Origin: a virus
Taxonomy: Duplodnaviria > Heunggongvirae > Uroviricota > Caudoviricetes
DNA: 37,364 bases
Reading direction: 5' to 3' (one strand)
Virus record (IMG/VR): IMGVR_UViG_2548876853_000021
The first letter of the stretch is position 1. Every line of letters begins with the position of its first letter. Under the pieces are notes generated by a model that searched no databases, was not told where the DNA came from, and saw only the letters and a list, made by a program, of their open reading frames with translations. The position numbers and the translations under genes are program-made. Shown here one piece after another: positions 1 through 13,724 of the stretch.

Positions 1-258
1 ATGCAAACCGTTATTTTTGGTCGTTCGGGTTGCCCTTACTGTGTGCGTGCAAAAGATCTGGCTGAGAAATTGAGCAATGAACGCGATGATTTTCAGTATC
101 AGTATGTAGATATTCGTGCGGAAGGGATCACTAAAGAAGATCTACAACAAAAGGCAGGTAAACCCGTAGAAACCGTGCCGCAGATTTTTGTCGATCAGCA
201 ACATATCGGCGGCTATACCGATTTTGCTGCATGGGTGAAAGAAAATCTGGACGCCTGA
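1..258 (+). CDS. grxA: glutaredoxin 1
   Basis: 85-aa ORF with the CPYC dithiol active site (SGCPYCVRAK), full length and typical enterobacterial Grx1 size; starts at window position 1. Confidence 0.95.
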   Translation: MQTVIFGRSGCPYCVRAKDLAEKLSNERDDFQYQYVDIRAEGITKEDLQQKAGKPVETVPQIFVDQQHIGGYTDFAAWVKENLDA

Positions 259-268
259 TCGTCTGACA

Positions 269-300
269 AGCCCTCGCGTTGAGGGCTTTACTGATTTTTT
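269..300. terminator. hairpin between convergent grxA and ybjM, probable bidirectional intrinsic terminator
   Basis: inverted repeat agccctc-gcgtt-gagggct followed by a T-rich run, located between the two stop codons. Confidence 0.5.
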
Positions 301-665
301 CTGTGCTGTGGTTTAAACAAACTACTGATAAATAAGAAACACAGTGCCCCCAGCGCACACCAGAACACCGCGCTTAGTAACCATGCCAGCTCTTGCCAGA
401 ATGAGCGGGTCGGTGAAAAAAACAGCCGCATAATAAGCATTGAACAGGGTGCCGCCAGCATTGCGCCAAATAGAGGTTTCAGGACTTCTCTACGCTGTGA
501 AAAGAAACTGGCAACTGCTCCAGGAAGAATGAAAAACAGCAAGCCGATTTCAGGATACCCGGCAGCCCGAAAAGCGCCTTTCATGTGCGTCGCCAGAAAA
601 AGGCACACCACAATGAAGAGGACAAAACAGCAGATTGCCCCCGCCCAACGTTGTTTATGTTTCAC
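288..665 (-). CDS. ybjM: inner membrane protein YbjM
   Basis: 125-aa very hydrophobic ORF (about 4 predicted TM helices); conserved position between grxA and ybjL. Confidence 0.85.
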   Translation of the reverse strand: MKHKQRWAGAICCFVLFIVVCLFLATHMKGAFRAAGYPEIGLLFFILPGAVASFFSQRREVLKPLFGAMLAAPCSMLIMRLFFSPTRSFWQELAWLLSAVFWCALGALCFLFISSLFKPQHRKNQ

Positions 666-934
666 TCGTTCCTCCTGACACTGCGTCTATCGAACACATT
701 TTTCGCCAGTGTGGCGTTCAGTAAGATAAAGCCGCTTCGCATTCCATGCTAATATAGGCCAACGCAATTCATATAGCCGTTGATACCTAATGTGATTACA
801 CTAGTAAAATATATTGTTACTTTACTATCGTTTAGGTGCGCTGAATGAATCTGCGCCCTGAATTCTGGTAAAAAACATTATCGTAAATTACCATTTCTTT
901 CAACAGCTTACTAGTAAACAAGAAGTTAGCCTCC

Positions 935-2620
935 GTGAATATAAACGTCGCCGAATTGTTAAATGGGAATTACATTCTGTTATTATTTGTGGTCCTCGCG
1001 CTTGGGCTATGTCTCGGAAAGTTACGACTTGGTTCGATCCAACTGGGTAATTCCATTGGCGTTTTGGTCGTATCACTGTTATTAGGCCAACAACATTTCA
1101 GCATTAACACCGACGCGCTTAATCTTGGCTTTATGCTGTTTATTTTCTGCGTCGGGGTCGAAGCCGGACCGAACTTTTTTTCCATTTTTTTTCGCGATGG
1201 GAAAAATTACCTAATGTTAGCACTGGTGATGGTTGGCAGTGCGCTGGTGATCGCCTTAGGGTTAGGTAAGCTGTTTGGCTGGGATATTGGCCTGACGGCC
1301 GGTATGTTAGCAGGCTCTATGACGTCGACACCGGTTCTGGTCGGTGCTGGCGATACACTGCGTCATTCCGGCATGGAAAGCAGGCAGCTCTCACTGGCAC
1401 TGGATAATCTGAGCCTCGGGTATGCCTTAACCTATTTAATCGGTCTGGTGAGTTTGATTGTTGGTGCGCGTTACTTGCCGAAATTGCAGCATCAGGACTT
1501 ACAGACCAGCGCCCAGCAAATCGCCCGCGAACGTGGCCTGGACACTGATGCCAACCGTAAGGTTTATTTACCGGTGATCCGCGCCTATCGCGTCGGCCCG
1601 GAGCTGGTGGCCTGGACCGACGGCAAAAATCTGCGTGAACTGGGTATTTATCGACAAACCGGCTGCTACATTGAACGTATTCGACGTAACGGGATTCTGG
1701 CAAATCCAGACGGTGATGCCGTGCTACAAATGGGCGATGAAATAGCGTTGGTAGGCTATCCCGACGCCCATGCCCGACTCGATCCCAGCTTCCGTAACGG
1801 TAAAGAAGTTTTCGATCGTGACCTTCTCGACATGCGTATCGTCACTGAAGAAGTGGTCGTTAAAAACCATAACGCTGTAGGTAAACGTCTCGCACAACTG
1901 AAGTTGACCGATCACGGTTGCTTCCTTAACCGCGTCATTCGTAGCCAGATTGAGATGCCGATAGATGACAACGTCGTGCTTAACAAAGGTGACGTTTTAC
2001 AAGTCAGCGGTGATGCCCGTCGCGTAAAAACCATCGCCGATCGCATCGGCTTTATCTCGATTCACAGCCAGGTCACTGACCTGCTGGCATTTTGCGCCTT
2101 CTTTGTTATTGGGCTGATGATCGGGATGATCACCTTCCAGTTCAGCACATTCAGTTTCGGCATGGGGAACGCTGCCGGGTTGTTATTCGCCGGAATTATG
2201 CTGGGCTTTATGCGTGCTAACCACCCGACCTTCGGTTACATTCCGCAAGGTGCATTAAGCATGGTGAAAGAGTTCGGCTTGATGGTGTTTATGGCAGGCG
2301 TTGGTCTGAGCGCCGGTAGCGGTATTAATAACGGCCTGGGCGCGATTGGCGGTCAGATGTTGATTGCCGGATTAATTGTCAGTCTTGTGCCCGTGGTTAT
2401 CTGTTTCTTGTTCGGTGCTTATGTATTGCGAATGAACCGCGCACTGTTGTTCGGCGCAATGATGGGCGCACGCACCTGCGCGCCGGCAATGGAGATCATC
2501 AGTGATACAGCTCGCAGTAACATCCCTGCGCTGGGCTATGCGGGCACCTACGCAATCGCCAACGTCCTGCTGACGCTGGCAGGGACAATCATCGTCATGG
2601 TATGGCCAGGATTAGGATAA
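935..2620 (+). CDS. ybjL: putative AAE-family transporter YbjL
   Basis: 561-aa ORF with N- and C-terminal membrane domains flanking a soluble central region, as in YbjL/YidE-type transporters. Confidence 0.9.
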
Positions 2621-2732
2621 AACTGAAGTTGCCCTGAAAATGAAATTTTTTTGCACAACCGCAGAACTTTTCCGCAGGGCATCAGTCTTAATTAGTGCCA
2701 CTGCTTTTCTTTGATGTCCCCATTTTGTGGAG

Positions 2733-2776
2733 CCCATCAACCCCGCCATTTCGGTTCAAGGTTGATGGGTTTTTTG
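2733..2776 (+). terminator. intrinsic terminator downstream of ybjL
   Basis: stem cccatcaacc / ggttgatggg followed by TTTTTT. Confidence 0.5.
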
Positions 2777-2855
2777 TTGCCTGAAATTTAAGCTGTTTAA
2801 AATCATGATGTTAGAAACACTGTTTTTTAACGATGGCGACAAAATGGCGGCAGCG

Positions 2856-3074
2856 TCAAAGAGAGAGCGCCACCTGTCCTGATTTCATTGGATGTGGCTG
2901 AACCGGATTTGACTCTTTTGGCGTTGCAATCGAACGAACAAAAGTTTCATGGGTAACAAAAGTATGGCTGCAGTTAATGTTCTGGCACTGGTTGTAACGC
3001 TCTTTGGTCAATGAAGATACCTGAAAACTGCTGCGAGTATGGGCGGCACTTCCACACAGTGGGCAAATCATCAT
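2856..3074 (-). CDS. ogr: late gene transcriptional activator Ogr (zinc finger)
   Basis: 72 aa from an internal ATG with a GGGGAGA Shine-Dalgarno; CPLC...CQNxNC zinc-finger pattern as in P2 Ogr / 186 B; the longer ORF-track start looks like a spurious extension. Confidence 0.85.
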   Translation of the reverse strand: MMICPLCGSAAHTRSSFQVSSLTKERYNQCQNINCSHTFVTHETFVRSIATPKESNPVQPHPMKSGQVALSL

Positions 3075-3164
3075 TTTTCGAGTTCTCCCCATTTTTGCTA
3101 AATTCACAATAATGATACCGCATTATTCCATTTTGCAAACTTAAAAGTTCTCCATTGCGAAGAA

Positions 3165-4265
3165 TCATTCCATTTCGAAATCATCAATCCTCACTTCAAG
3201 CTCCAGACTGGTTGTAAAACCGTTATCTGGGCTGACGGTATGCGTCAGAGTCGTAATGGTCCATTCCGCATCATCTATCGGCTGTTTAAAACCACTGACC
3301 TTCACAGGCATTTCCGTGTAGAGATCTGCCCGCCCTTCTGCCAGTTGTAGCGAAAATGACGCAACGCCGCGTTGCAGGCGTTCCCACTGCATTTTCGCCG
3401 CTCGTTCGGCGTTGCTCCGGTTGGCATAAGTGCGATTAAGTACCAGCACGTTTTCATCCGTACCCACCAGGTAATCGCCCTGCTTCGCTTCTGGCTCTTT
3501 CTTCTGCTTCTTAGTTCTGCGCTTACGCTTCACCGTGGTGCTTTCTTTCTTCGCAGGTTCGCGGGTATGCAACCAGCTGGCAATTACGCCCGTGTAGGCT
3601 CCGCGATCTGCCAGGGTAAATCGGTGACTGTCGCCGTCCTTGCGTGTGATAGTGATCACTGGCAGAGGTTTACCAGTGGCGCTTTTGCCCTGCCCCTGCC
3701 GGATGAATAACAGATTGCCATTTTTCACCGACGCGATGGCACCGTACTGTCGCGCCAGCCGCATCAGAAAACTGCCGTCACTCTCATTAGTCTGGTCTAT
3801 ATGCTCCACTGGCTTATCCGACAGGTCTTTACCCAGTGCCATCTTCAGCTTGTGCCGCGCGGCTATTTCCTTCACCACTTCCCCGACGGTGGTCTTATGC
3901 CACGATTTTTCACGGCGGGTATTCAGCGTTTCCCGAAAATCAGCACTTCGCGCCCGGATAGTCAGGCGGTCCGGTGCGCCAGTGTGTTCAATCTCGTCCA
4001 CCGTGAATGCCCCTTTCGGGAAAAGCGGCTGCCCCTTCCAGCCCAGCGCCAGCGTAATGACCGCACCACGGCGCGGCAGCACGATTTTTCCATCGGCGTC
4101 GTCCAGCTCCAGATCAAGCTGGTCCGCTTCAAAGCCCCGGTTATCCGTCAGCGTAAGCCCCATCAGGCGGTTGTCCAGCACAGTAGTGATATCCCTGCCT
4201 TCAATACTGATGCTGAATGCCGGAGTTTTGTTGCCTTTGTTAAGCAGTTCAGAGCTGAAATTCAC
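3165..4265 (-). CDS. D: tail protein D (late control gene D)
   Basis: 366 aa; position and size match P2 gpD, directly upstream of ogr. Confidence 0.85.
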   Translation of the reverse strand: MNFSSELLNKGNKTPAFSISIEGRDITTVLDNRLMGLTLTDNRGFEADQLDLELDDADGKIVLPRRGAVITLALGWKGQPLFPKGAFTVDEIEHTGAPDRLTIRARSADFRETLNTRREKSWHKTTVGEVVKEIAARHKLKMALGKDLSDKPVEHIDQTNESDGSFLMRLARQYGAIASVKNGNLLFIRQGQGKSATGKPLPVITITRKDGDSHRFTLADRGAYTGVIASWLHTREPAKKESTTVKRKRRTKKQKKEPEAKQGDYLVGTDENVLVLNRTYANRSNAERAAKMQWERLQRGVASFSLQLAEGRADLYTEMPVKVSGFKQPIDDAEWTITTLTHTVSPDNGFTTSLELEVRIDDFEME

Positions 4266-4747
4266 GACAGCAGCCCTCCCACCGTTTTACTGATATCGCT
4301 TAAGGCAGACGTTGCCGTATCCTGCAAATTATTCAGCTGCGCACTGAGATCACCGAACATATCGGACAGGGATTCATCCACTCGTTTGAGCGACAGGGTG
4401 AACTCAATCCGGCGCGGCATACCGTCGCGGAAAAACTCCGTTTTAGTCTGATTCAGTCCCTCAATCACATACATGCCGTAAATCGTGCCGCTGCCTTCAA
4501 TCAGGGGCCATGCTTTCCCCTGTTCTGCCATCTGCTCCAGTGCCAGCAACGACAGCCTGCCGCCTGTTATTTCCGGCATAAGAACACCGGAAAGCGTCAG
4601 CATGTCGTTTTCCGGTCCCAGAAACTGCGTGGACGGACGTCGGTTTACCCGACTGTTTGCCGCATGTCGCCAGCTGCGTTGATACTGCAGTTCCTGATAC
4701 GGAACGGTGCGCAGCATAAACACGTACAATCCCAGCACCATCATCAT
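4262..4747 (-). CDS. U: tail protein U
   Basis: 161 aa; P2 gpU position and size; overlaps neighbouring genes by 4 nt. Confidence 0.8.
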   Translation of the reverse strand: MMMVLGLYVFMLRTVPYQELQYQRSWRHAANSRVNRRPSTQFLGPENDMLTLSGVLMPEITGGRLSLLALEQMAEQGKAWPLIEGSGTIYGMYVIEGLNQTKTEFFRDGMPRRIEFTLSLKRVDESLSDMFGDLSAQLNNLQDTATSALSDISKTVGGLLS

Positions 4748-7700
4748 GCGTCGTATCCCCCCTGATCGCTGTAGTTACTCCTGGCTTTTGCCTTCAGCCT
4801 GCGTTCACGTTCATCAAGCTGGCGTGCCACCTCCCGCGCAATATCCTGCGCACTTTGTCCTGGCTGCGTCTGAATGATGATCTGCGTCGGTGCCTCAATC
4901 CGTTGAACGAGCGGCACAGTGGCTGCGCGACTCACAATTGCTTCTCCACCTTTCGCGGGAAGTGCCAAAGGGTGCAACGGTGGAAGCTCTGCTGGCGCGG
5001 CAGCAACGCCCATCATTCCGGCAACAACGGCAGCCAGTGCAGCTGTATTTCTCCGGCTGGTCACATTTGCCGGGCCGTTAACAATTTCCGGCCCGTTTTC
5101 ACCGACGATGCCAAACTGCCCGCGCGGGATATACCCGCCGCTGTCATACATCCCCGCAAAGCCATATCCCCATGATGGAAAACCACCCGATGGCATCATC
5201 ACTTTACCGTCTGCATTCACCGTCGCAGGTTGCTGACGCGTCACGCTTTCCGGCAGTTTTGCCTTTGCGGCCTCTTTACTGACAATGCCGAGCTTCTCCA
5301 GCAACCAGGAAACGCCGGATTTCAGGGAGTCCAGCGGATGCATGACCATATTCAGCCCTTCCGCCAGTGCCTCCCCGAATCGCCGCCCCATTGCCGCTGC
5401 GCTCTGCAGTTCGGCAGAGGTCGACTTAACGGGCGTCAGCAGATCAGTAAACCAGCCCCACAGCGCCTGCACTTTGTCGCCAATCCACTGGAACACGGGC
5501 TTAAGCGGTTCGAACGCTGCACTGATGGGACCTGCCGCCGCTTTGAATCCTTCCACCACGCCACCGAGAAATGCGGTGATGGGTTGCCAGTATTTCCAGA
5601 CAACCAGCGCCACGCCCGCCAGTGCAGTAACCACAAGACCTATCGGACTGAGCAGAGCACCTAACAGACCAGATATGGCATACAGGGCAACGCGCAGCAT
5701 CGCCAGTGGACCAGATGCCAGTACTCGCAGCACCGTGCCTGCGGCGGCCAGTCCACCGCGCAGTACCGCCAGAGGATTCATAAACATCACAGCAACAGCA
5801 CGTAAACCGGATAATCCAGACCGCAAAAGTGCAACCGGCGCACCTGCTACAGTTTTCAGGACATTTCCCGTCAGTGATGCCGTGCGGCGCAAAGACGACA
5901 ACGGCGCAGTAAGTAAACCTGCGGCGTTGCCCGATGAAGCAAGCCCGCGTCGCAGCAGTGCCAGTGGTGCGCCAGCCAGCCAGGACAACGCGCTGCTGGT
6001 TCGAGTTACTGCTGCCGTAACGGAAGATAACGTTTTGATACCCAACACAGAGAATCCCAGACGGATCACTGCCAGCGGCCCCAGCACTGCAGCCAGCGCC
6101 ACCGCTAAGGTGCCGAGGCCGACGGTAACCGCAGCCACAACAGCCGATGCTTTCATCAGTGTGCCTGTCAGTTCCGGGTTAGCTTCCACCCAGCGACGCA
6201 ACGCCCCCGTGACGCTTTTCACCGTGTACAGAATATCCATCAGCGGCTGGCGCAGCGTTTCGCCCAGGCTGCTGAAGGTGTTCTGCGCTCCGGTTTTGAC
6301 CAGCAACCACTGCGCAGAAAGTGAATCCTTGTTAATGTCGGATTCTTTCTGCATGGAGCCAAGCGCATCATTGCCCGCTGTCAGTTTTAACTGACGCTGC
6401 AGTTCCGGCAGGTTGTTTGCCAGTTTCGCCGCGTCATCGCCAAACTCTTTACCAAACAACATAGTCATGGCAGACAGGCGCTTGTCCTGCGGCAGCGCGT
6501 TTACCTTCTCCAGCACGCGCTGGATGGTTCCCATCGCATCCTTCGTCATCTGCTTTTCAATCACTTCAGGATTGAGTTTCAGCAGATTCATCCCTTCAAA
6601 GAAACTCTTGCTTTGCATGGTGGCAATGGACAATTCACGCACCATCGCGTTTGCTGCACTGGCTGCAACCTCTGGCGCAGCGCCCAGTGTCAGGAAGGTG
6701 GAACCCAGCGCCGCCGCTTTACGATAATCCAGACGGTCAGCCACACCGCCCAGACGTTGCATCACATCAATGATGTCTGCCCCTTTCGACATGGCATTAT
6801 CATCCAGATAGTTCAGCGCATCACCGAGCTGTTCAATATTGCGGGTGGGGATTTTGTAGAGCTGGGCGATTTTCCCCAGACTTTCTGACAGTTCATCCGC
6901 TGGCAGCTCAAAGGCTGTTGCCGCCTTTGCTGCCGTACTGGCGAAGGCCAGCAGGTCACGTTTCTGATCTTCCCAGCTGTCGTCAGGGTTTGCGACGTTC
7001 ATGCGCGCACCACCTTCAACCAGTGCAGCGAAGTCCACCGCACCGTTTTCCATCGGCAACTGTTCGCTGGCAGCCTTGATGGCATCCTGCATTTCATAAA
7101 AACGTGCAGTGCGGTTGCCATTATCGTCACGCAGACCATTGACCTGCTTTGCCACACCTTTCATGGCATCTTCCATGCTGGTATAGCTTTTTACTGCCGC
7201 CATCACTGGCGCACCCATTGCCAGCCCTGCAGCCGTGGTGGTGGCTCCGGCACCTGCAATACGATCACGCACCTCCAGCGAACGGGCATAACTGGCACGC
7301 GCTGCATTCATCCTGCGCTTAGCTTCCCCCAGTCGCTTCAGCCGCGCCTCCTGTTTCGAAAGTTCCTGGTTATAACGTGATGTTTCACGGGCTAAACGGG
7401 CAGTTGCTCCCGCATCGTCTTTCGCAGAAATTCCCGCCCGGTACAGTTCAGCACGCACAAGCGCCGTCTGCTGCTGCAGCTTTTTCTGGCGTTCTTCCAG
7501 GCGCTGAACAGCCAGCCGTTGACGGCCCAGAGCAACAACCTGACGTTGCGAAGGCGGCCCCATCGCTCCCAGTTCCTGACTGAGCAAATTTGCACGCTGG
7601 CGGGCATAGTTCAGCCTGTCGCCTAATTTCTGATTTTCTGCCTGCAGCTTTCGGAAGCTGTCCAGACTGCTCCCGGCCTGATCAAGCTGCTTTATTGCAT

Positions 7701-7821
7701 CGCGGGATTTTTTGACAGCAGCAGCCAGTTCTCTTGAACTGGCCTGCGCAGATCGAAATGGGCGGGTGAGCTTGTCAACCGCATTAAGAATGACCTGCAG
7801 ACGCAGGTTGTTATCACTCAT
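4744..7821 (-). CDS. T: tail tape measure protein
   Basis: 1025 aa; coiled-coil N-terminal part, hydrophobic PLxxLRxGL repeats in the middle, Gly-rich C-terminus; follows E/E'. Confidence 0.9.
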   Translation of the reverse strand: MSDNNLRLQVILNAVDKLTRPFRSAQASSRELAAAVKKSRDAIKQLDQAGSSLDSFRKLQAENQKLGDRLNYARQRANLLSQELGAMGPPSQRQVVALGRQRLAVQRLEERQKKLQQQTALVRAELYRAGISAKDDAGATARLARETSRYNQELSKQEARLKRLGEAKRRMNAARASYARSLEVRDRIAGAGATTTAAGLAMGAPVMAAVKSYTSMEDAMKGVAKQVNGLRDDNGNRTARFYEMQDAIKAASEQLPMENGAVDFAALVEGGARMNVANPDDSWEDQKRDLLAFASTAAKAATAFELPADELSESLGKIAQLYKIPTRNIEQLGDALNYLDDNAMSKGADIIDVMQRLGGVADRLDYRKAAALGSTFLTLGAAPEVAASAANAMVRELSIATMQSKSFFEGMNLLKLNPEVIEKQMTKDAMGTIQRVLEKVNALPQDKRLSAMTMLFGKEFGDDAAKLANNLPELQRQLKLTAGNDALGSMQKESDINKDSLSAQWLLVKTGAQNTFSSLGETLRQPLMDILYTVKSVTGALRRWVEANPELTGTLMKASAVVAAVTVGLGTLAVALAAVLGPLAVIRLGFSVLGIKTLSSVTAAVTRTSSALSWLAGAPLALLRRGLASSGNAAGLLTAPLSSLRRTASLTGNVLKTVAGAPVALLRSGLSGLRAVAVMFMNPLAVLRGGLAAAGTVLRVLASGPLAMLRVALYAISGLLGALLSPIGLVVTALAGVALVVWKYWQPITAFLGGVVEGFKAAAGPISAAFEPLKPVFQWIGDKVQALWGWFTDLLTPVKSTSAELQSAAAMGRRFGEALAEGLNMVMHPLDSLKSGVSWLLEKLGIVSKEAAKAKLPESVTRQQPATVNADGKVMMPSGGFPSWGYGFAGMYDSGGYIPRGQFGIVGENGPEIVNGPANVTSRRNTAALAAVVAGMMGVAAAPAELPPLHPLALPAKGGEAIVSRAATVPLVQRIEAPTQIIIQTQPGQSAQDIAREVARQLDERERRLKAKARSNYSDQGGYDA

Positions 7822-8250
7822 CGTTGGCCCCGCTTCTCTGAATCGCTTTATACCGCCATTCCAGCACTTCGGTCAGCGGCATAACGTCAGTAACGGATGG
7901 CGGCCAGTGAAAAATGGTGGCGATATCTGCCACCAGATCGTCAACCGTCAGGCTGTCGATAAACCGGCAAGCACCGACTTCTTCAACAAAAAAGTGACAA
8001 CCTCAACCGACATGGCAGTGAGATCTGCCGGGTCCATCTCTGCAATTTCCTGTGCAGTCAGTGCCGGACTGGAGATGCGGGGGATCACGGTCATCATCGC
8101 GTTTACATCCATATCCATAATGGCCTGCAGGCGTGTACCGCGCAGCGCACCGGACTGCGGTTTACGCAGCACAATTTCGGTGATTTCTGTTTTACCGCGC
8201 TTGATGGGGGTATCCAGTTGAATGGTCTTTTCAGTCTGCTTATCGCTCAT
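7814..8250 (-). CDS. E': tail assembly chaperone E+E' (programmed -1 frameshift product)
   Basis: -1 frame downstream of the T_TTT_TTG site stays open for about 57 codons and stops at TGA overlapping the T start (ATGAGTGA). Confidence 0.65.
7948..8250 (-). CDS. E: tail assembly chaperone E
   Basis: 100-aa ORF ending just after a TTTTTTG slippery heptamer. Confidence 0.85.
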   Translation of the reverse strand: MSDKQTEKTIQLDTPIKRGKTEITEIVLRKPQSGALRGTRLQAIMDMDVNAMMTVIPRISSPALTAQEIAEMDPADLTAMSVEVVTFLLKKSVLAGLSTA

Positions 8251-8304
8251 TTTGCTGTCCTGTCAATTGGGTTCTGGCGCGGTATCCCGCGCCGTTCAGA
8301 TATA

Positions 8305-8820
8305 TCAGAGGCCGAGGGCGTTGCGGTGCGCTTCCATCAGGTCCACACCGTCCACAATTTCCACCATGTTGATAAGGTCCACTTCATAGAGCACCTCACC
8401 ATTGATGGTCAGCTTCGCGTAGCTGTTGGTACTGGTCACTTTGGTGGTGTTGCTTTCGCCCGTCTTCCACTCGCCGGAATCCACTTCTTTGTGACGTCCA
8501 CGCACGACAAGCTCCACGGCCTGCACTTCCCCGGTATCGTCACGCTGAATAGAGCCGGTAAAGCGCAGCTGGATGCCATCCACCGTGGCTTTACCCATCT
8601 GTTTAAACAGCAGCAATTCAGTACCACCAATGGAAAATTCTGTGTCCAGCGCACTGTCATCAAGCCCCAGATCCACATCCACCGCACCCGGCATTCCGCC
8701 GCCGCGATACTTCTCATATTTGCGGGTAAATTTCGGCAGCGTCAGCGACTCAACGATCCCCTGCCAGTTGTTCCCGTCGTTAAACAGGTTCAGGTGTTTT
8801 AATTTGCGTGGTAAAGCCAT
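8305..8820 (-). CDS. FII: tail tube protein FII
   Basis: 171 aa; P2 gpFII size and position. Confidence 0.85.
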   Translation of the reverse strand: MALPRKLKHLNLFNDGNNWQGIVESLTLPKFTRKYEKYRGGGMPGAVDVDLGLDDSALDTEFSIGGTELLLFKQMGKATVDGIQLRFTGSIQRDDTGEVQAVELVVRGRHKEVDSGEWKTGESNTTKVTSTNSYAKLTINGEVLYEVDLINMVEIVDGVDLMEAHRNALGL

Positions 8821-8829
8821 GTTGTCCCC

Positions 8830-10002
8830 TTACGCGCTGACCTGGCTGGCGAAATTCACCAGGTACTGATCGGTGATGCGCTGACGCAGCATCAGGTTTT
8901 CAAGTGGCGGCACTGGCGTGTAGTCGTAGTCGATGGTGAGTTTTCCGGCTTTCAGCGTGTCTTTGTCGTTCACCGACTCATCCAGCCAGCAATCACCACC
9001 AATGAGATAGCCCTGACTGACCAGGCTGCGCATTTTGGCGCGGATACCCTCGATAATGTCGCGCGCCAGCGACGGGTTAAGCGGTTTATCCACCGCCCAC
9101 ATGTGTGCTTCTGCCATCGTGTCCATCAGCACCTGCGCCGTGCGGGTGTAGTTTTCGAAGGCAAAAAGCGGGTCATCACTCAGGCAGCGGGAACCCCAGA
9201 AGCGGAAACCGTCTTTACGCACAAGCGTGGTGACGTCGTTCTGGTTCAGCAGACCTGCATCGGTTGCCGGGTCCTGCAGATCCCAGAACACATCTGCAGA
9301 AATTCCGGTGACACCGTTCACGCCCACGTTGGACAGGCTTTTGTGCCATCCGGTCTGCTCGTCAATTTTGGCGCGCAGACCAAGCGCACGGGCGGTAGCA
9401 TATGCCGTTGCTTCGGCATTCAGCACCGTGTCCCAGCCAGTAAAGTCAGGCCAGATCAGCATCCCTTCGCGCTGGCTGAAGTTTTCGCGGTAAGTGATCG
9501 CCTCCTGCACTGTCTTGCAGCCATACGCTGACAGGTAAGCAAATCCACGCAGGCTTTGCGCCACGCTCAGCAACTCAGTAGCTACCGCCTTGGTGTCGTG
9601 GCCTGGCACGCCAAGAATGCGCGGTTTAACGCCGAGCAGTGACTGGGCAGATAACAGGGCTTTCATACCTGTTTTTTTACCTTCAGCAGTCACTGCGCCG
9701 ATGATATTGGTCGTGGTTTCGTCTTCCGTTTCACCCTGCGGCACACGCACAACAATGGTCACGGGTTTTGCCTGGTCAGCGATGGCATCCAGCGAACGGG
9801 CCAGAGTACCTGACTCACCCGCTTTACCGCTGGCAGTCAGCACATCAGTGATCAGCACGGGTTTATTAAGAGGAAACATTTTTGCATCGGCATCATCGCC
9901 CGTGCAGACCATACCCACGATGGCGGTGCTCACCGTGGTAATAGATCGGGTGCCTTCGTTGACTTCAACAACGCGCACCCCGTGGTGGTAATCCTGAGCC
10001 AT
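8830..10002 (-). CDS. FI: tail sheath protein FI
   Basis: 390 aa; P2 gpFI size and position; AGGAGG Shine-Dalgarno. Confidence 0.9.
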
Positions 10003-10096: not shown

Positions 10097-10144
10097 AAAT
10101 AACGGTATTTGTCTGCTTGCAGGGATAATCAACATAATGCTGAT

Positions 10145-10717
10145 TCAGGGGGATTCATTGATCTTATTTGCCGGAAATTTTCTATAAATGGTAGAAACGC
10201 CTACATCAAAAATCAGTGCAATACGCTGTCTTGATTCTCCGGCCTCGAGTAAACGCCCAATCTGTGCCCACTGTTCGGTGGTCAACTTAGGACGGCGTCC
10301 ACCTACTCTGCCTTTGGCACGAGCTGCAGCCAGCCCTGCCCTGGTACGTTCAACTATCAGTTCGCGTTCCATTTCAGCCAGGGCACCCATGACATGAAAA
10401 AAGAAACGGCCCATTGGGGTACTGGTATCAATACTGTCAGTCAGGCTTCTGAAATTCACACCACGCTGGCGCAACTCTTCTATCAGCGTAACAAGATGCC
10501 GCATACTGCGCCCCAACCTGTCCAGCTTCCAGACAACCAGCGTGTCTCCTGCCGATAGTGTCCTGAGTAGTTTTTTCAGCCCCGGTCTGTCGGACTTAGT
10601 GCCACTGATTTTGTCCTCAAAAATCCGCTCACATCCCGCGCAGTTCAGTGCATTACGTTGCAAATCGGTGTTCTGGTCATTTGTTGACACGCGTACATAG
10701 CCAATAAGCATGATCAT
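10145..10717 (-). CDS. serine DNA invertase (Hin/Gin/Cin/Pin family)
   Basis: 190 aa; N-terminal catalytic motif YVRVSTNDQ, C-terminal HTH; adjacent to tail-fibre genes. Confidence 0.9.
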   Translation of the reverse strand: MIMLIGYVRVSTNDQNTDLQRNALNCAGCERIFEDKISGTKSDRPGLKKLLRTLSAGDTLVVWKLDRLGRSMRHLVTLIEELRQRGVNFRSLTDSIDTSTPMGRFFFHVMGALAEMERELIVERTRAGLAAARAKGRVGGRRPKLTTEQWAQIGRLLEAGESRQRIALIFDVGVSTIYRKFPANKINESP

Positions 10718-10766
10718 CCCCCTGAATAAAAACCGGAGATGATGCCAGTTAGCTGTTACCTCTGCA

Positions 10767-10794
10767 TTTTCTTAAACGTTGGTTTGGGAGAAGG
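10767..10794. promoter_or_regulatory. invertase recombination site (hix/gix-like), left
   Basis: 16-bp core ttggtttgggagaagg (10779-10794) is the exact reverse complement of 12661-12676; flanks resemble Hin-family half-sites. Confidence 0.6.
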
Positions 10795-11413
10795 TTCATT
10801 TGGGTTCAGAAATCTGGTTGCCTTCACAACGGCTGGAGTAACAAACTGGACTGTTCCTGAAGAGTTGCGCAAAGGAAGAAAATGTTACGTCAAAGTTATT
10901 GGTGGCGGTGCGTCAGGAGGGATAGGTTCAACAACCGCTTCAGCCGTTACATGTGGCGGAGGAGGTGGTGGGGGCGGAGTTGCTGAGGGGCTGGTAGATT
11001 TAACTGGTATAAACAGTGTTTCGATTACGGTTGGTGCCGGTGGTGCGCCTGTGTCTGGTATTTCTGTAAACGGTAAAAATGGTGGCTCGAGCAGTTTCGG
11101 GACTTACATGTCAGCTTCCGGAGGCTATAGCGGAGGCCAGCCTTCCGGAGGGTTAGGCGCAGTTGGTGTCGGGGGAACAATTAATACATCGCTTGGGCCA
11201 GGTTCTCCAGGTTCCATTGCTTCTGCCGCATCGGGAGCTGGTAATGGTGGTTCTGGTGGTGGCCCCGGAGGAGCAGGTTCATTCAGAGATACAGCTAACG
11301 GAAAAGCGGTATCAGCAGTTGGGCCTGGAGGTGGCGGTGCTGGATTATGTCCTAATTCATCAACGGGTCAGTCGGGTGCCGGAGCAGATGGCGCAGTTTA
11401 TATTTACTGGTGA
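10781..11413 (+). CDS. silent alternative tail-fibre C-terminal cassette (Gly-rich), expressed only after inversion as a fusion to the constant part of H
   Basis: open frame continuous through the recombination site; shares GLGEGS at the junction with H; the ATG at 10739 lies outside the invertible segment. Confidence 0.6.
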   Translation, partial: GLGEGSFGFRNLVAFTTAGVTNWTVPEELRKGRKCYVKVIGGGASGGIGSTTASAVTCGGGGGGGGVAEGLVDLTGINSVSITVGAGGAPVSGISVNGKNGGSSSFGTYMSASGGYSGGQPSGGLGAVGVGGTINTSLGPGSPGSIASAASGAGNGGSGGGPGGAGSFRDTANGKAVSAVGPGGGGAGLCPNSSTGQSGAGADGAVYIYW

Positions 11414-11420
11414 GGTTCAT

Positions 11421-11591
11421 ATGTGGGCAAGAATTGAAGAAAATAAAGTAGAAGAGATAACGGAAATTAATCCTGAAGGAAGATTCCATCCATCATTAAT
11501 ATGGAAAGAATGCCCTGCTGACACACAGCAGGGGGATTTATATATTGATGGTGAGTTTATTGTGCAGTCTCCGGCAGTTCAGGCCAGATAA
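11421..11591 (+). CDS. short alternative tail-fibre assembly protein (tfa'), possibly truncated
   Basis: 56-aa ORF with GAGG Shine-Dalgarno directly after the alternative fibre cassette; its 3' end overlaps the 3' end of G on the other strand. Confidence 0.4.
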   Translation: MWARIEENKVEEITEINPEGRFHPSLIWKECPADTQQGDLYIDGEFIVQSPAVQAR

Positions 11592-12165
11592 CATCCGGCG
11601 CGGTGCTGGTATCTGTTGCCGTCACCGCGTCAATGTAATCCAACACCGTGTTGAGTCGGCTGGTTTCTGACTGCGTCAGATTCCGTCCGGCCTGTAATTT
11701 CAGCTGAATCAGACTGATGGAAGCCATTGCAGCATCAATCAGTGACTGACGCTGTGCTTCTGCCGCGTCTACTGCGGCGCTATGCTGTGCCTCAGTATCG
11801 GTCACCCATTTCTCACCATCCCATTTATCGTATGGAGATAAAGGGGCGATAGTGGTTGTATTTTCAGGGTAATCACCCGGAGCTTTGATTTCTTTTGATT
11901 CTCCTGTTTCTGTGCTAAAGACGATTTCACCACGATGGTCTGGCACATATTCCCATGAGTTAAAATCTGCAGAACGGCAGATTGCATACCCAGTTTTGTA
12001 TGAGCCAGGAGCATCTAAACAGGAACATGCCGGAATGCCGACACCCACAGCAAGATATTCAGTTGATGTGAAAATATATTCCCGTGTTTCACCATCATAG
12101 TTATAAACCGTAATATTTCCTGCCTGGGTGGCGATAAATTCGTTATTTAATACAGCGTAATCCAT
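11557..12165 (-). CDS. G: tail fibre assembly protein G
   Basis: 202 aa; conserved Tfa C-terminus (...IWPELPE...); start overlaps the H stop. Confidence 0.85.
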   Translation of the reverse strand: MDYAVLNNEFIATQAGNITVYNYDGETREYIFTSTEYLAVGVGIPACSCLDAPGSYKTGYAICRSADFNSWEYVPDHRGEIVFSTETGESKEIKAPGDYPENTTTIAPLSPYDKWDGEKWVTDTEAQHSAAVDAAEAQRQSLIDAAMASISLIQLKLQAGRNLTQSETSRLNTVLDYIDAVTATDTSTAPDVIWPELPETAQ

Positions 12166-13724
12166 TATGCAGCCCTCACAATATACGCAAATGCCAGGTT
12201 ACGTGGTCTGGTTTCTTTAATTAAAGAGGAGGCATCAGGTGAACTCACTGATTCAGCACCATTTCTTCCACCAGTGGTATAAGTAAAAACTCGCTCACTG
12301 TTAGACCAGTAATCCACACCAACTGTTCTTGCTGATGAAAAAATGGTTTCATCAGATATAACCTGTTCTATTCCATACGGGATATTAGTAACTGACCCCA
12401 CTTTTGTAGGTATTCCATGATTATGAGAAATTACTGCATGCTCTTGATTCGTTAATAAAGTACGACCGCTATCCACTCCACGCCCGTCATCCCAGCCACG
12501 AATAAACTCACCACGTAAATCAGGCAATTTATTTGTCGGGTAAGCCTTTGCCAGTTCCGGGTATGCTTCAGCAGAAAAAGCCGCACCGTTGCATTTCAGC
12601 CAACCTGATGGCGGTGTGGCTGAAGGCCATGGAACAGGCACACCAACAGGTAATGCAGAGCCTTCTCCCAAACCAAGGTATGTGAGAAGACCAGCTACAT
12701 CCTTTCCACTCAAATTGGTAAGCGTATTGTCCAGCGGTTGTTTACCTGCCAGCGCATTAAGCATTGTCGTGGCAAAGTTCGGATCATTCCCCAGTGCCGC
12801 CGCCAGTTCGTTCAGTGTATCCAGTGCAGCAGGTGCAGAACCCACCATTCCTGCAATCGCCGATTTCACAAAAGCCGTAGTGGCAATCTGTGTATTGTTG
12901 ACCGACTGCGCCGCCGTGGGGGCTGTTGGCGTTCCGGTGAGTGCCGGACTCGACAACGGTGCTTTTAGTGCCAGCGCATTGTTAATGGTGGTACTGAAAT
13001 TCGGATCATTGTTAATGGCTGCGGCTATTTCTTTCAGCGTGTCCAGCGTGGCTGGCGCACCATTAATAAGGGCCGTCAGTGCCGCCTGTACAAACGCAGT
13101 GGTCGCAACCTGCGTGGTATTATTCCCCGCCGCTGGCGTTGGCGCTTTGGGGGTTCCGGTAAATGTCGGGCTGGCTTTTGGCGCGTACTGTGAATGCGGG
13201 TCCGGTGCGGCAAGATGTTTTGCCATCTGATCATCCGCGTACACCTTCAGCTCCAGTGCCTTGTCATCCACATACTTGCGGGTTGCCAGCACTACAGCAG
13301 GGTCGATTTTCAGGGTGATATTGTCCGTGCTGCTGGTAATCAGCACCATGCGCACGGTCTGAGTGCGCCCGCTACCTTCAGCCAGTTGCGGCTTATAGCT
13401 TTCCGGGCAGTTGCCCACGGCAATCAATGCCCCGGACTCATCAAACAAGCCCACTTCACGTATCCACCAACCGCCCTCGTTTTCAGGGATCACCTGTTCG
13501 GCAATAATCTGGCTGCTGTTCTGCGGATCGATATAAAGCATATTCAGCGCAGCCCGGCGTTTCTCATTTACCAGTGCCGTCTGCTTTGCGTCCGGCGTTG
13601 GCAATACTCCACTGCCATCGCCCACCGCCATATGGGTAATTTTTAGCGGCACACCGAGCGCGGCGGCGCTGGCAAGTTTCGCCGCGCCAATATCCGTCAG
13701 CAGGGTATAAAATTTTGTGCTCAT
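12165..13724 (-). CDS. H: tail fibre protein H
   Basis: 519 aa; two tandem ~53-aa fibre repeats (aa ~204-330); the variable C-terminal ~165 aa lie inside the invertible segment. Confidence 0.9.
   Translation of the reverse strand: MSTKFYTLLTDIGAAKLASAAALGVPLKITHMAVGDGSGVLPTPDAKQTALVNEKRRAALNMLYIDPQNSSQIIAEQVIPENEGGWWIREVGLFDESGALIAVGNCPESYKPQLAEGSGRTQTVRMVLITSSTDNITLKIDPAVVLATRKYVDDKALELKVYADDQMAKHLAAPDPHSQYAPKASPTFTGTPKAPTPAAGNNTTQVATTAFVQAALTALINGAPATLDTLKEIAAAINNDPNFSTTINNALALKAPLSSPALTGTPTAPTAAQSVNNTQIATTAFVKSAIAGMVGSAPAALDTLNELAAALGNDPNFATTMLNALAGKQPLDNTLTNLSGKDVAGLLTYLGLGEGSALPVGVPVPWPSATPPSGWLKCNGAAFSAEAYPELAKAYPTNKLPDLRGEFIRGWDDGRGVDSGRTLLTNQEHAVISHNHGIPTKVGSVTNIPYGIEQVISDETIFSSARTVGVDYWSNSERVFTYTTGGRNGAESVSSPDASSLIKETRPRNLAFAYIVRAA
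12661..12688. promoter_or_regulatory. invertase recombination site (hix/gix-like), right, inside gene H
   Basis: reverse complement of the 16-bp core at 10779-10794; falls at H codons 350-355 (LGLGEG). Confidence 0.6.

Follow-up and report, generated by a model that had tools for sequence, protein, structure and literature searches.

The region of interest in the 37,364-nt stretch of viral DNA analysed here (the window) is the tail module of a P2-like (Peduoviridae) prophage, and positions 10,781 to 11,591, which a preliminary description had singled out as an asymmetric cassette, belong to the half of a Gin/Cin/Pin-type invertible tail-fibre segment that is currently not expressed. Comparative analyses showed that this silent half is an intact and widely conserved two-gene module, in which a glycine-rich fibre tip resembling Pam3 gp24 is followed by a gene for a 56-aa protein related to the first domain of Pam3 gp25. 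As a whole, a Gin/Cin-type invertible segment with a Pam3-type fibre and a single-domain, chaperone-like helper is the best explanation of the data, and we hold it to be reasonably probable. The system is a variation on two known kinds and is not categorically new.

Anatomy and natural states of the invertible segment

The genes for the tape measure (4744-7821), the tube (8305-8820) and the sheath (8830-10002) lie on the minus strand, as does the gene for the enzyme that inverts the segment, a serine DNA invertase of 190 aa (10145-10717; Pfam Resolvase, E=2e-53, and HTH_7, E=1.5e-15; PHROG 125 'DNA invertase', E=1e-101). A perfect 12-nt inverted repeat (ATTCAGGGGGAT / ATCCCCCTGAAT, at 10143-10154 and 10716-10727) brackets the invertase ORF, almost coinciding with its stop and start; chance alone would give about 0.4 such pairs in the stretch, and the repeat is probably a coincidence. 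Two 26-bp crossover sites of the hix/gix/cix type were found in inverted orientation with complementary cores. The invertase-proximal site is located at 10767-10792 (TTTTCTTAAACG TT GGTTTGGGAGAA, core TT at 10779-80), and the other lies in the tail-fibre gene H, at the junction of its constant and variable parts (12663-12688; TTCTCCCAAACC AA GGTATGTGAGAA, core AA at 12675-76). Both are contained in the longest inverted repeat of the region, a 31-nt repeat that pairs 10767-10797 with 12658-12688.

In the present orientation, H (12165-13724, minus strand) combines a constant N-terminal part common to both fibre forms (12689-13724, minus strand; PF12571 Phage_tail_fib, E=1.5e-64) with an expressed variable C-terminus inside the invertible segment (12165-12662, minus strand), a 165-aa collar-domain tip in which PF07484 Collar spans H residues 361-408. 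The assembly gene of this expressed cassette is G (11557-12165, minus strand), which encodes a full-length tail fibre assembly protein of 202 aa (PF02413 Caudo_TAP, E=2e-32; PHROG 105, E=2e-96). On the plus strand, the silent cassette holds an alternative fibre C-terminus with a TNF-like and a glycine-rich domain (10781-11413, 210 aa and the stop codon) and the 56-aa ORF (11421-11591), a single-domain homologue of the fibre-binding N-domain of the Pam3 gp25 type. The whole ORF that carries the silent tip extends from 10739 to 11413 on the plus strand (224 aa); counted from the crossover, the portion expressed after inversion is therefore 210 aa long (10781-11410).

Virtual inversion at both core dinucleotides yielded an in-frame fibre, H', of 560 aa, which was identical at 552 of 560 positions to an annotated protein of E. 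coli PS10-3, a natural flipped state of the same prophage type. The H constant part was also found fused to the glycine-rich tip in two P2-type E. coli loci (L012 and L013), both of which encode the 560-aa fibre. The segment thus has the adjacent serine invertase, the inverted 26-bp sites, the in-frame alternative fibre and the two naturally occurring orientations of the Gin/Cin/Pin/Hin-type systems. As in the Mu G segment (Gin; S/U, S'/U'), the P1 C segment (Cin) and the e14 P segment (Pin), the serine invertase is adjacent, one of the inverted 26-bp sites lies in the fibre gene, and two cassettes of tip plus assembly gene converge. However, the segments of Mu, P1 and e14 are symmetric, each tip being paired with a full-length Tfa, whereas one cassette here consists of a Gly_rich_2 fold and a 56-aa one-domain protein.

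The cassette was present in 54 of 5426 complete E. coli genomes (about 1%). In 19 of them it lies beside the invertase and is silent, and in the other 35 it is joined to a fibre constant part, with homology to the window breaking exactly at the crossover (10774-10779). The annotation under the match in these 35 genomes was stfP (25), 'phage tail protein' (7) and 'hypothetical protein' (only 3). Five of the six joined loci examined carried an unbroken fibre ORF, of 307 or 560 aa; apart from the P2-type loci mentioned above, L002 is of the Mu/e14 type (StfP) with a 307-aa fibre, and L003 has the same layout. The sixth, exceptional locus (L014; E. coli 2018-11-3CC, with a twin assembly, H104) is P2-type and carries a micro-inversion of 95 bp at the start of the glycine-rich tip (L014 3903-3997, equivalent to window 10781-10875). 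This inversion lies within the expressed 560-aa fibre gene, and the ORF stays open with 32 residues scrambled. It extends from the genuine crossover core to a quasi-site (GTTGCGCAAAGG-AA-GAAAATGTTACG, window 10864-10889) that has the AA core and 6 of the 12 bases of one half-site in common, and the event gives the impression that the invertase acted by accident at a secondary site.

Of ten E. coli copies examined, nine had neither an indel nor a stop. The only frame-broken copy, in E. coli O128:H27 90-9281 (L028 2581-3386), has five 1-nt deletions in 811 nt; tfaE and fibre genes of the same prophage are also annotated as frameshifted or partial, and the deletions could reflect either real decay of an e14-like element or homopolymer sequencing errors. 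In E. coli ET734, where the glycine-rich tip is expressed, the silent tip fragment and the invertase are separated by an additional hypothetical gene of 140 aa (L012 5390-7098), and the invertible region of this strain may be more complex, with more than two cassettes. Moreover, RefSeq/PGAP annotation of the cassette is inconsistent (L001 4040-4892, L002 3717-4818, L003 3723-4818): the tip is given as a pseudogene ('missing C-terminus') or left unannotated, and the fused fibre with an expressed glycine-rich tip is split into 'StfP incomplete' and a separate 'glycine-rich domain-containing protein'.

The glycine-rich tip and its 56-aa partner

The preliminary description of the silent tip proved correct in its details. 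The frame is open from the crossover to 11413, free of internal stops, and ends in GAVYIYW. Its 210 residues are 30.5% Gly, 12.4% Ser and 10.5% Ala, compared with 9.6% Gly in the expressed 165-aa tip, and the run of eight glycines (10955-10978) is encoded by four different codons (GGC GGA GGA GGT GGT GGG GGC GGA). The two tips had been described as unlike each other, and they are unrelated, because the expressed one belongs to Collar (PF07484) and the silent one to Gly_rich_2 (PF21722). The match to PF21722 scored 44.7 bits (gathering cut-off 24.3) and covered profile positions 1-225 of 226. When the tip alone was searched against PDB sequences with phmmer, no match was obtained; the family profile was needed, and it matched Pam3 gp24 by sequence (E=1e-8). 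The AlphaFold model, built on 52 homologues, reached a pLDDT of 91.8, and the tip has the TNF-like beta-sandwich and glycine-rich lattice fold. From these comparisons, the tip is best classified as a Pam3 gp24-type, predicted receptor-binding domain.

Glycine-rich receptor-binding domains of the polyglycine-II type are known from gp38 of phage S16, gp33 of mycobacteriophage Bxb1 and the glycine-rich domain of ALK/LTK. S16 gp38 is a separate monomeric adhesin at the fibre end, whereas the glycine-rich domain here is the covalent C-terminus of the fibre, and S16 gp38 was absent among the matches of this analysis. A 'chaperone cap' paper on Alteromonas (PMC10579305) was set aside, its subject not being glycine-rich tips.

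The 56-aa ORF was confirmed, with its ATG at 11421 and its stop at 11589-11591, as was its convergent overlap with the 3' end of the 202-aa G (35 nt, 11557-11591). It starts 7 nt after the tip stop. In other genomes, PGAP calls the small gene at 67 aa (from ATG 11388) or 115 aa; however, the homologues all begin with MWAR at the position of ATG 11421, and GAGG lies 7 nt upstream of this codon, so that 56 aa is the better call. The TGA stop of the tip falls within that ribosome-binding region. Inside the small ORF, a perfect hairpin with an 8-bp stem (CCCTGCTG-ACACA-CAGCAGGG, window 11513-11533) encodes CPADTQQG; on the minus strand it begins 24 nt past the G stop, and it could serve as the H-G terminator in the present orientation. 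Terminator-like sites number 8 in the region, compared with an expectation of 2.0 from shuffles.

The 56-aa protein alone gave no match in Pfam, PHROG or NCBIfam, and a shallow profile of 8 sequences returned only noise from PDB sequences. Its close homologues, including those of Leminorella and Budvicia, are 54-66 aa long and 59-96% identical. A profile search of 1.8 billion representatives found 689 relatives at E<=1e-3, all of which matched via their N-terminal ~50 residues. Among the best 149 of these 689, 18 do not exceed 70 aa and most fall in the range of 100-200 aa, and the long-form relatives scanned have C-termini that belong to DUF4376, Phage_tail_APC or PHROG 'tail fiber assembly'. 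Since the tip passes the Pfam gathering score and the small ORF has 689 relatives, the cassette is more than a chance arrangement of open frames. The AlphaFold model of the 56-aa protein (pLDDT 86.8) has five beta strands, and a family profile of 122 sequences found a single match in the whole PDB, 7ypx_a (E=1.6e-7); the match to Pam3 gp25 emerged only via this profile and the fold search. In Pam3 gp25, residues 1-55 form a beta-sandwich that binds the TNF-like domain and the glycine-rich one, and residues 64-162 form a helical trimerisation domain (PMC9608196). The profile match and this domain layout together indicated that the 56-aa protein corresponds to the first domain of gp25 only.

Both family profiles therefore match the chains of one known pair, Pam3 gp24 and gp25 (PDB 7YPX/7YFW; PMC9608196), and the order of fibre and then chaperone is the same. 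However, gp25 has 162 aa and a C-terminal four-helix trimerisation domain that the 56-aa protein lacks, and the Pam3 fibre has a short helical shaft, whereas the tip here belongs on the 350-aa constant part of P2 H and is switched by DNA inversion. Tfa proteins (Mu U, P2 G and lambda Tfa; PF02413 Caudo_TAP, PF16778 Phage_tail_APC and DUF4376) are likewise encoded directly after a fibre gene. The small ORF shares with Tfa/gp25-type proteins the beta-sandwich domain at the N-terminus and the position directly downstream of the fibre gene, and it lacks their C-terminal alpha-helical oligomerisation domain (Caudo_TAP, Phage_tail_APC or DUF4376).

Alignment with fibre-assembly proteins, which had been proposed as a check, thus related the small ORF to the N-domain of Pam3 gp25 and of long-form assembly proteins with Tfa-type C-termini. 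The label of tail-fibre assembly gene stood for this fibre-binding N-domain and failed for the conserved C-terminal domain that defines Tfa, so that the name tfa' is only half right. Homology of the small ORF to G was rejected (hhalign probability 2%). A full-length tfa' hidden by a frameshift or sequencing error was also rejected: in tblastn with 14 Tfa or long-form proteins, C-domain similarity occurred on the minus strand only and was G itself, and no Tfa C-domain was encoded in any plus-strand frame downstream of the small ORF. No description of N-domain-only Tfa proteins was found in the literature, the coverage of which was incomplete, so that this is weak evidence of novelty.

Origin and conservation of the two-gene module

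Related P2-like phages carry in the same slot a silent tip fragment of 105-131 aa and a tfa' of 147 aa. Homology to these phages is lost at the crossover and is back at window 11569, and the last six residues of the small ORF, PAVQAR, are the end of the 147-aa tfa'. Codons 1 to about 49 of the small ORF are specific to the cassette, and the last 6-7 codons derive from the 3' end of the ancestral tfa'. The break and resumption of homology, together with PAVQAR, indicated that the glycine-rich module took the place of the earlier tip and of the tfa' codons except for the last few, with a recombination or deletion junction inside the small ORF at ~11569. The overlap with the end of G keeps the last codons of the ancestral tfa' in place. 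The question raised in the preliminary description, whether relatives carry a full-length tfa' here, was answered by the 147-aa tfa' in related P2-like phages and by a small protein of 54-57 aa in the enterobacterial carriers of the cassette.

This length is kept in all seven enterobacterial genera (E. coli, Intestinirhabdus, Pseudocitrobacter, Trabulsiella, Leminorella, Budvicia and Edwardsiella), and the two genes were side by side in every enterobacterial locus examined. Across 14 loci, which also included Pseudomonas, Stutzerimonas and metagenomes, the small gene directly followed an ORF ending in a glycine-rich domain in 13. A close spacing of 2-12 nt from the fibre stop is also conserved. 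The copies at genome loci of Pseudomonas and Stutzerimonas are 129-187 aa long. Within E. coli, dN/dS was uninformative because only 14 sites vary, and it was set aside for a comparison across genera. In the first 40 codons of the small ORF, pN was 0.11-0.27 and pS was 0.53-1.0, with synonymous sites saturated, which indicates strong purifying selection on its sequence over long divergence.

The asymmetric invertible layout of the window is also present in Intestinirhabdus and Pseudocitrobacter. The P2-like prophages of Budvicia and Edwardsiella have no invertase and the gene order fibre, short ORF, sheath, and tblastn of the tail module detected no Tfa beside the pair, which leaves the short form as the sole chaperone-like gene detected. 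Budvicia aquatica has, between its 56-aa gene and the sheath gene, an ORF of 24-30 aa that matches Caudo_TAP (L010 5199-5291, L011 5217-5291). This scrap appears to be the leftover C-terminal end of a former full-length tfa, which suggests that here, too, recombination within tfa brought in the glycine-rich module.

At the DNA level, the exact cassette was absent from all records of the phage collection, and two isolated phages emerged only from a protein-level search. Yersinia phage vB_YpM_MLG42 (PP599993.1), a P2-like phage of Y. pestis, has an intact silent tip of 210 aa (L032 2849-3668; PF21722, E=4e-13) together with an unbroken small ORF of 55 aa that its record leaves unannotated; the crossover site is kept, no invertase gene is present between the site and the sheath gene, and the cassette is frozen silent. 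At the locus examined in Pseudomonas phage Amjad_SA, the gene for a 59-aa form comes two genes after that for a Gly_rich_2 protein. Between these genes (L033 963-3680) lies one whose 419-aa product has a polysaccharide-deacetylase domain at its N-terminus (PF01522, E=2e-8) and may be a second receptor-modifying tail protein.

Proposed function, alternatives and implications

According to the mechanism that we favour, inversion would join the H constant part to the Pam3-type tip, a TNF-like and glycine-rich predicted receptor-binding domain, to give the 560-aa fibre, and would set the 56-aa gene 7 nt past the new fibre stop, a distance at which the fibre and the 56-aa protein would be co-translated. 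Of the gp25 domains, the small protein would keep the beta-sandwich alone, which in Pam3 grips one subunit's TNF-like/glycine-rich lobe from the side, without the helical domain that trimerises the chaperone. It may therefore bind and shield each nascent glycine-rich lobe during folding, with trimerisation left to the N-terminal constant part of H. In the Pam3 fibre, the three lobes touch one another loosely, and the N-terminal helices make up most of the trimer interface (PMC9608196). Loose contacts between lobes and a trimer set by the N-terminal constant part of the fibre would make the trimerising C-domain dispensable. The idea of a minimal chaperone, one of two readings offered in the preliminary description, is hence supported by the homology and the predicted fold of the gp25 N-domain, and chaperone activity itself is a probable role for the protein. 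The Budvicia and Edwardsiella prophages with no detected Tfa and the 59-aa form of Amjad_SA hint that the short form is sufficient. Several points count against this mechanism. No short-form-only prophage is known to give infective particles. The Pam3 study used full-length gp25 including the C-terminal domain, to which it assigned trimerisation (PMC9608196), and loss of this domain might abolish function instead of being tolerated. Finally, a Tfa C-domain could come in trans from other prophages of the same cell.

An alternative that we consider unlikely is that the glycine-rich tip folds by itself and that the 56-aa protein is a stable virion accessory, a cap or co-adhesin that modulates receptor binding. 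The homology and linkage data fit such a role too, since they speak to the ancestry of a binding domain and not to its function, and some fibre accessory proteins, such as gp38 of the T2 type, stay on the fibre. In Pam3, gp24 alone still gives some soluble trimer, which speaks for this alternative. Against it, the Pam3 chaperone was not detected in virions by mass spectrometry, and it must leave before infection because it covers the distal loops (PMC9608196).

Less probable still is that the short protein is only the specificity half of a chaperone, with trimerisation provided in trans by the C-domain of G or of another prophage's Tfa. The C-terminal domains of Tfa are conserved and in concept interchangeable (PMC9608196, citing Mu Tfa work), and several tfa genes are common in E. 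coli, the tfa flank being matched in 2383 of 5426 genomes at up to 7 places each. However, G would not be co-expressed after inversion because it is then antisense to the late transcript, no Tfa was detected in the tail module of the Budvicia and Edwardsiella prophages, and no covalent or evident non-covalent link joins an N-domain-only protein to a separate C-domain. The other reading of the preliminary description, a decaying cassette in which the small ORF is the functionless stump of a truncated tfa' and the glycine-rich tip is dead, could draw on the standard tfa' tail PAVQAR, the Caudo_TAP remnant just 3' of the short ORF in Budvicia, the five deletions in E. coli 90-9281 and the cassette without invertase in MLG42, but it is contradicted, and very improbable, because 9 of 10 E. 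coli copies have neither indels nor stops, 35 of 54 E. coli genomes have the cassette joined to a fibre constant part with intact 307- or 560-aa ORFs in five of six examined, a protein of 54-57 aa is kept in seven genera with saturated synonymous sites and low non-synonymous divergence, and the coupling of 2-12 nt to the fibre stop is conserved.

The single-domain helper has several implications. Automated annotation mislabels the cassette, with the tip as a pseudogene or 'StfP incomplete' and the small gene as a hypothetical protein of 67 or 115 aa. The module of ~800 bp passes between tail genes of the P2-like and Mu/e14-like kinds and from genus to genus, so that it is a ready unit for host-range engineering. 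We give even chances to the broader proposal, under which the 56-aa type would be the smallest known fibre-specific chaperone and the ~800 bp a small, transferable unit of tip and helper with which phages and tailocins could be retargeted. This proposal holds that enterobacterial phages have a previously undescribed class of single-domain chaperones of ~55 aa, that the trimerisation C-domain is dispensable for TNF-like/glycine-rich tips, and that, for such tips, the sole essential job of the chaperone is to shield the lobes individually. Structural models of fibre assembly rest on Mu Tfa and Pam3 gp25 and assign two jobs to the chaperone, in which a variable N-domain recognises the tip and a conserved C-domain joins the three chains. 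A conserved and selected family that has the first domain only suggests that the second job is not universal.
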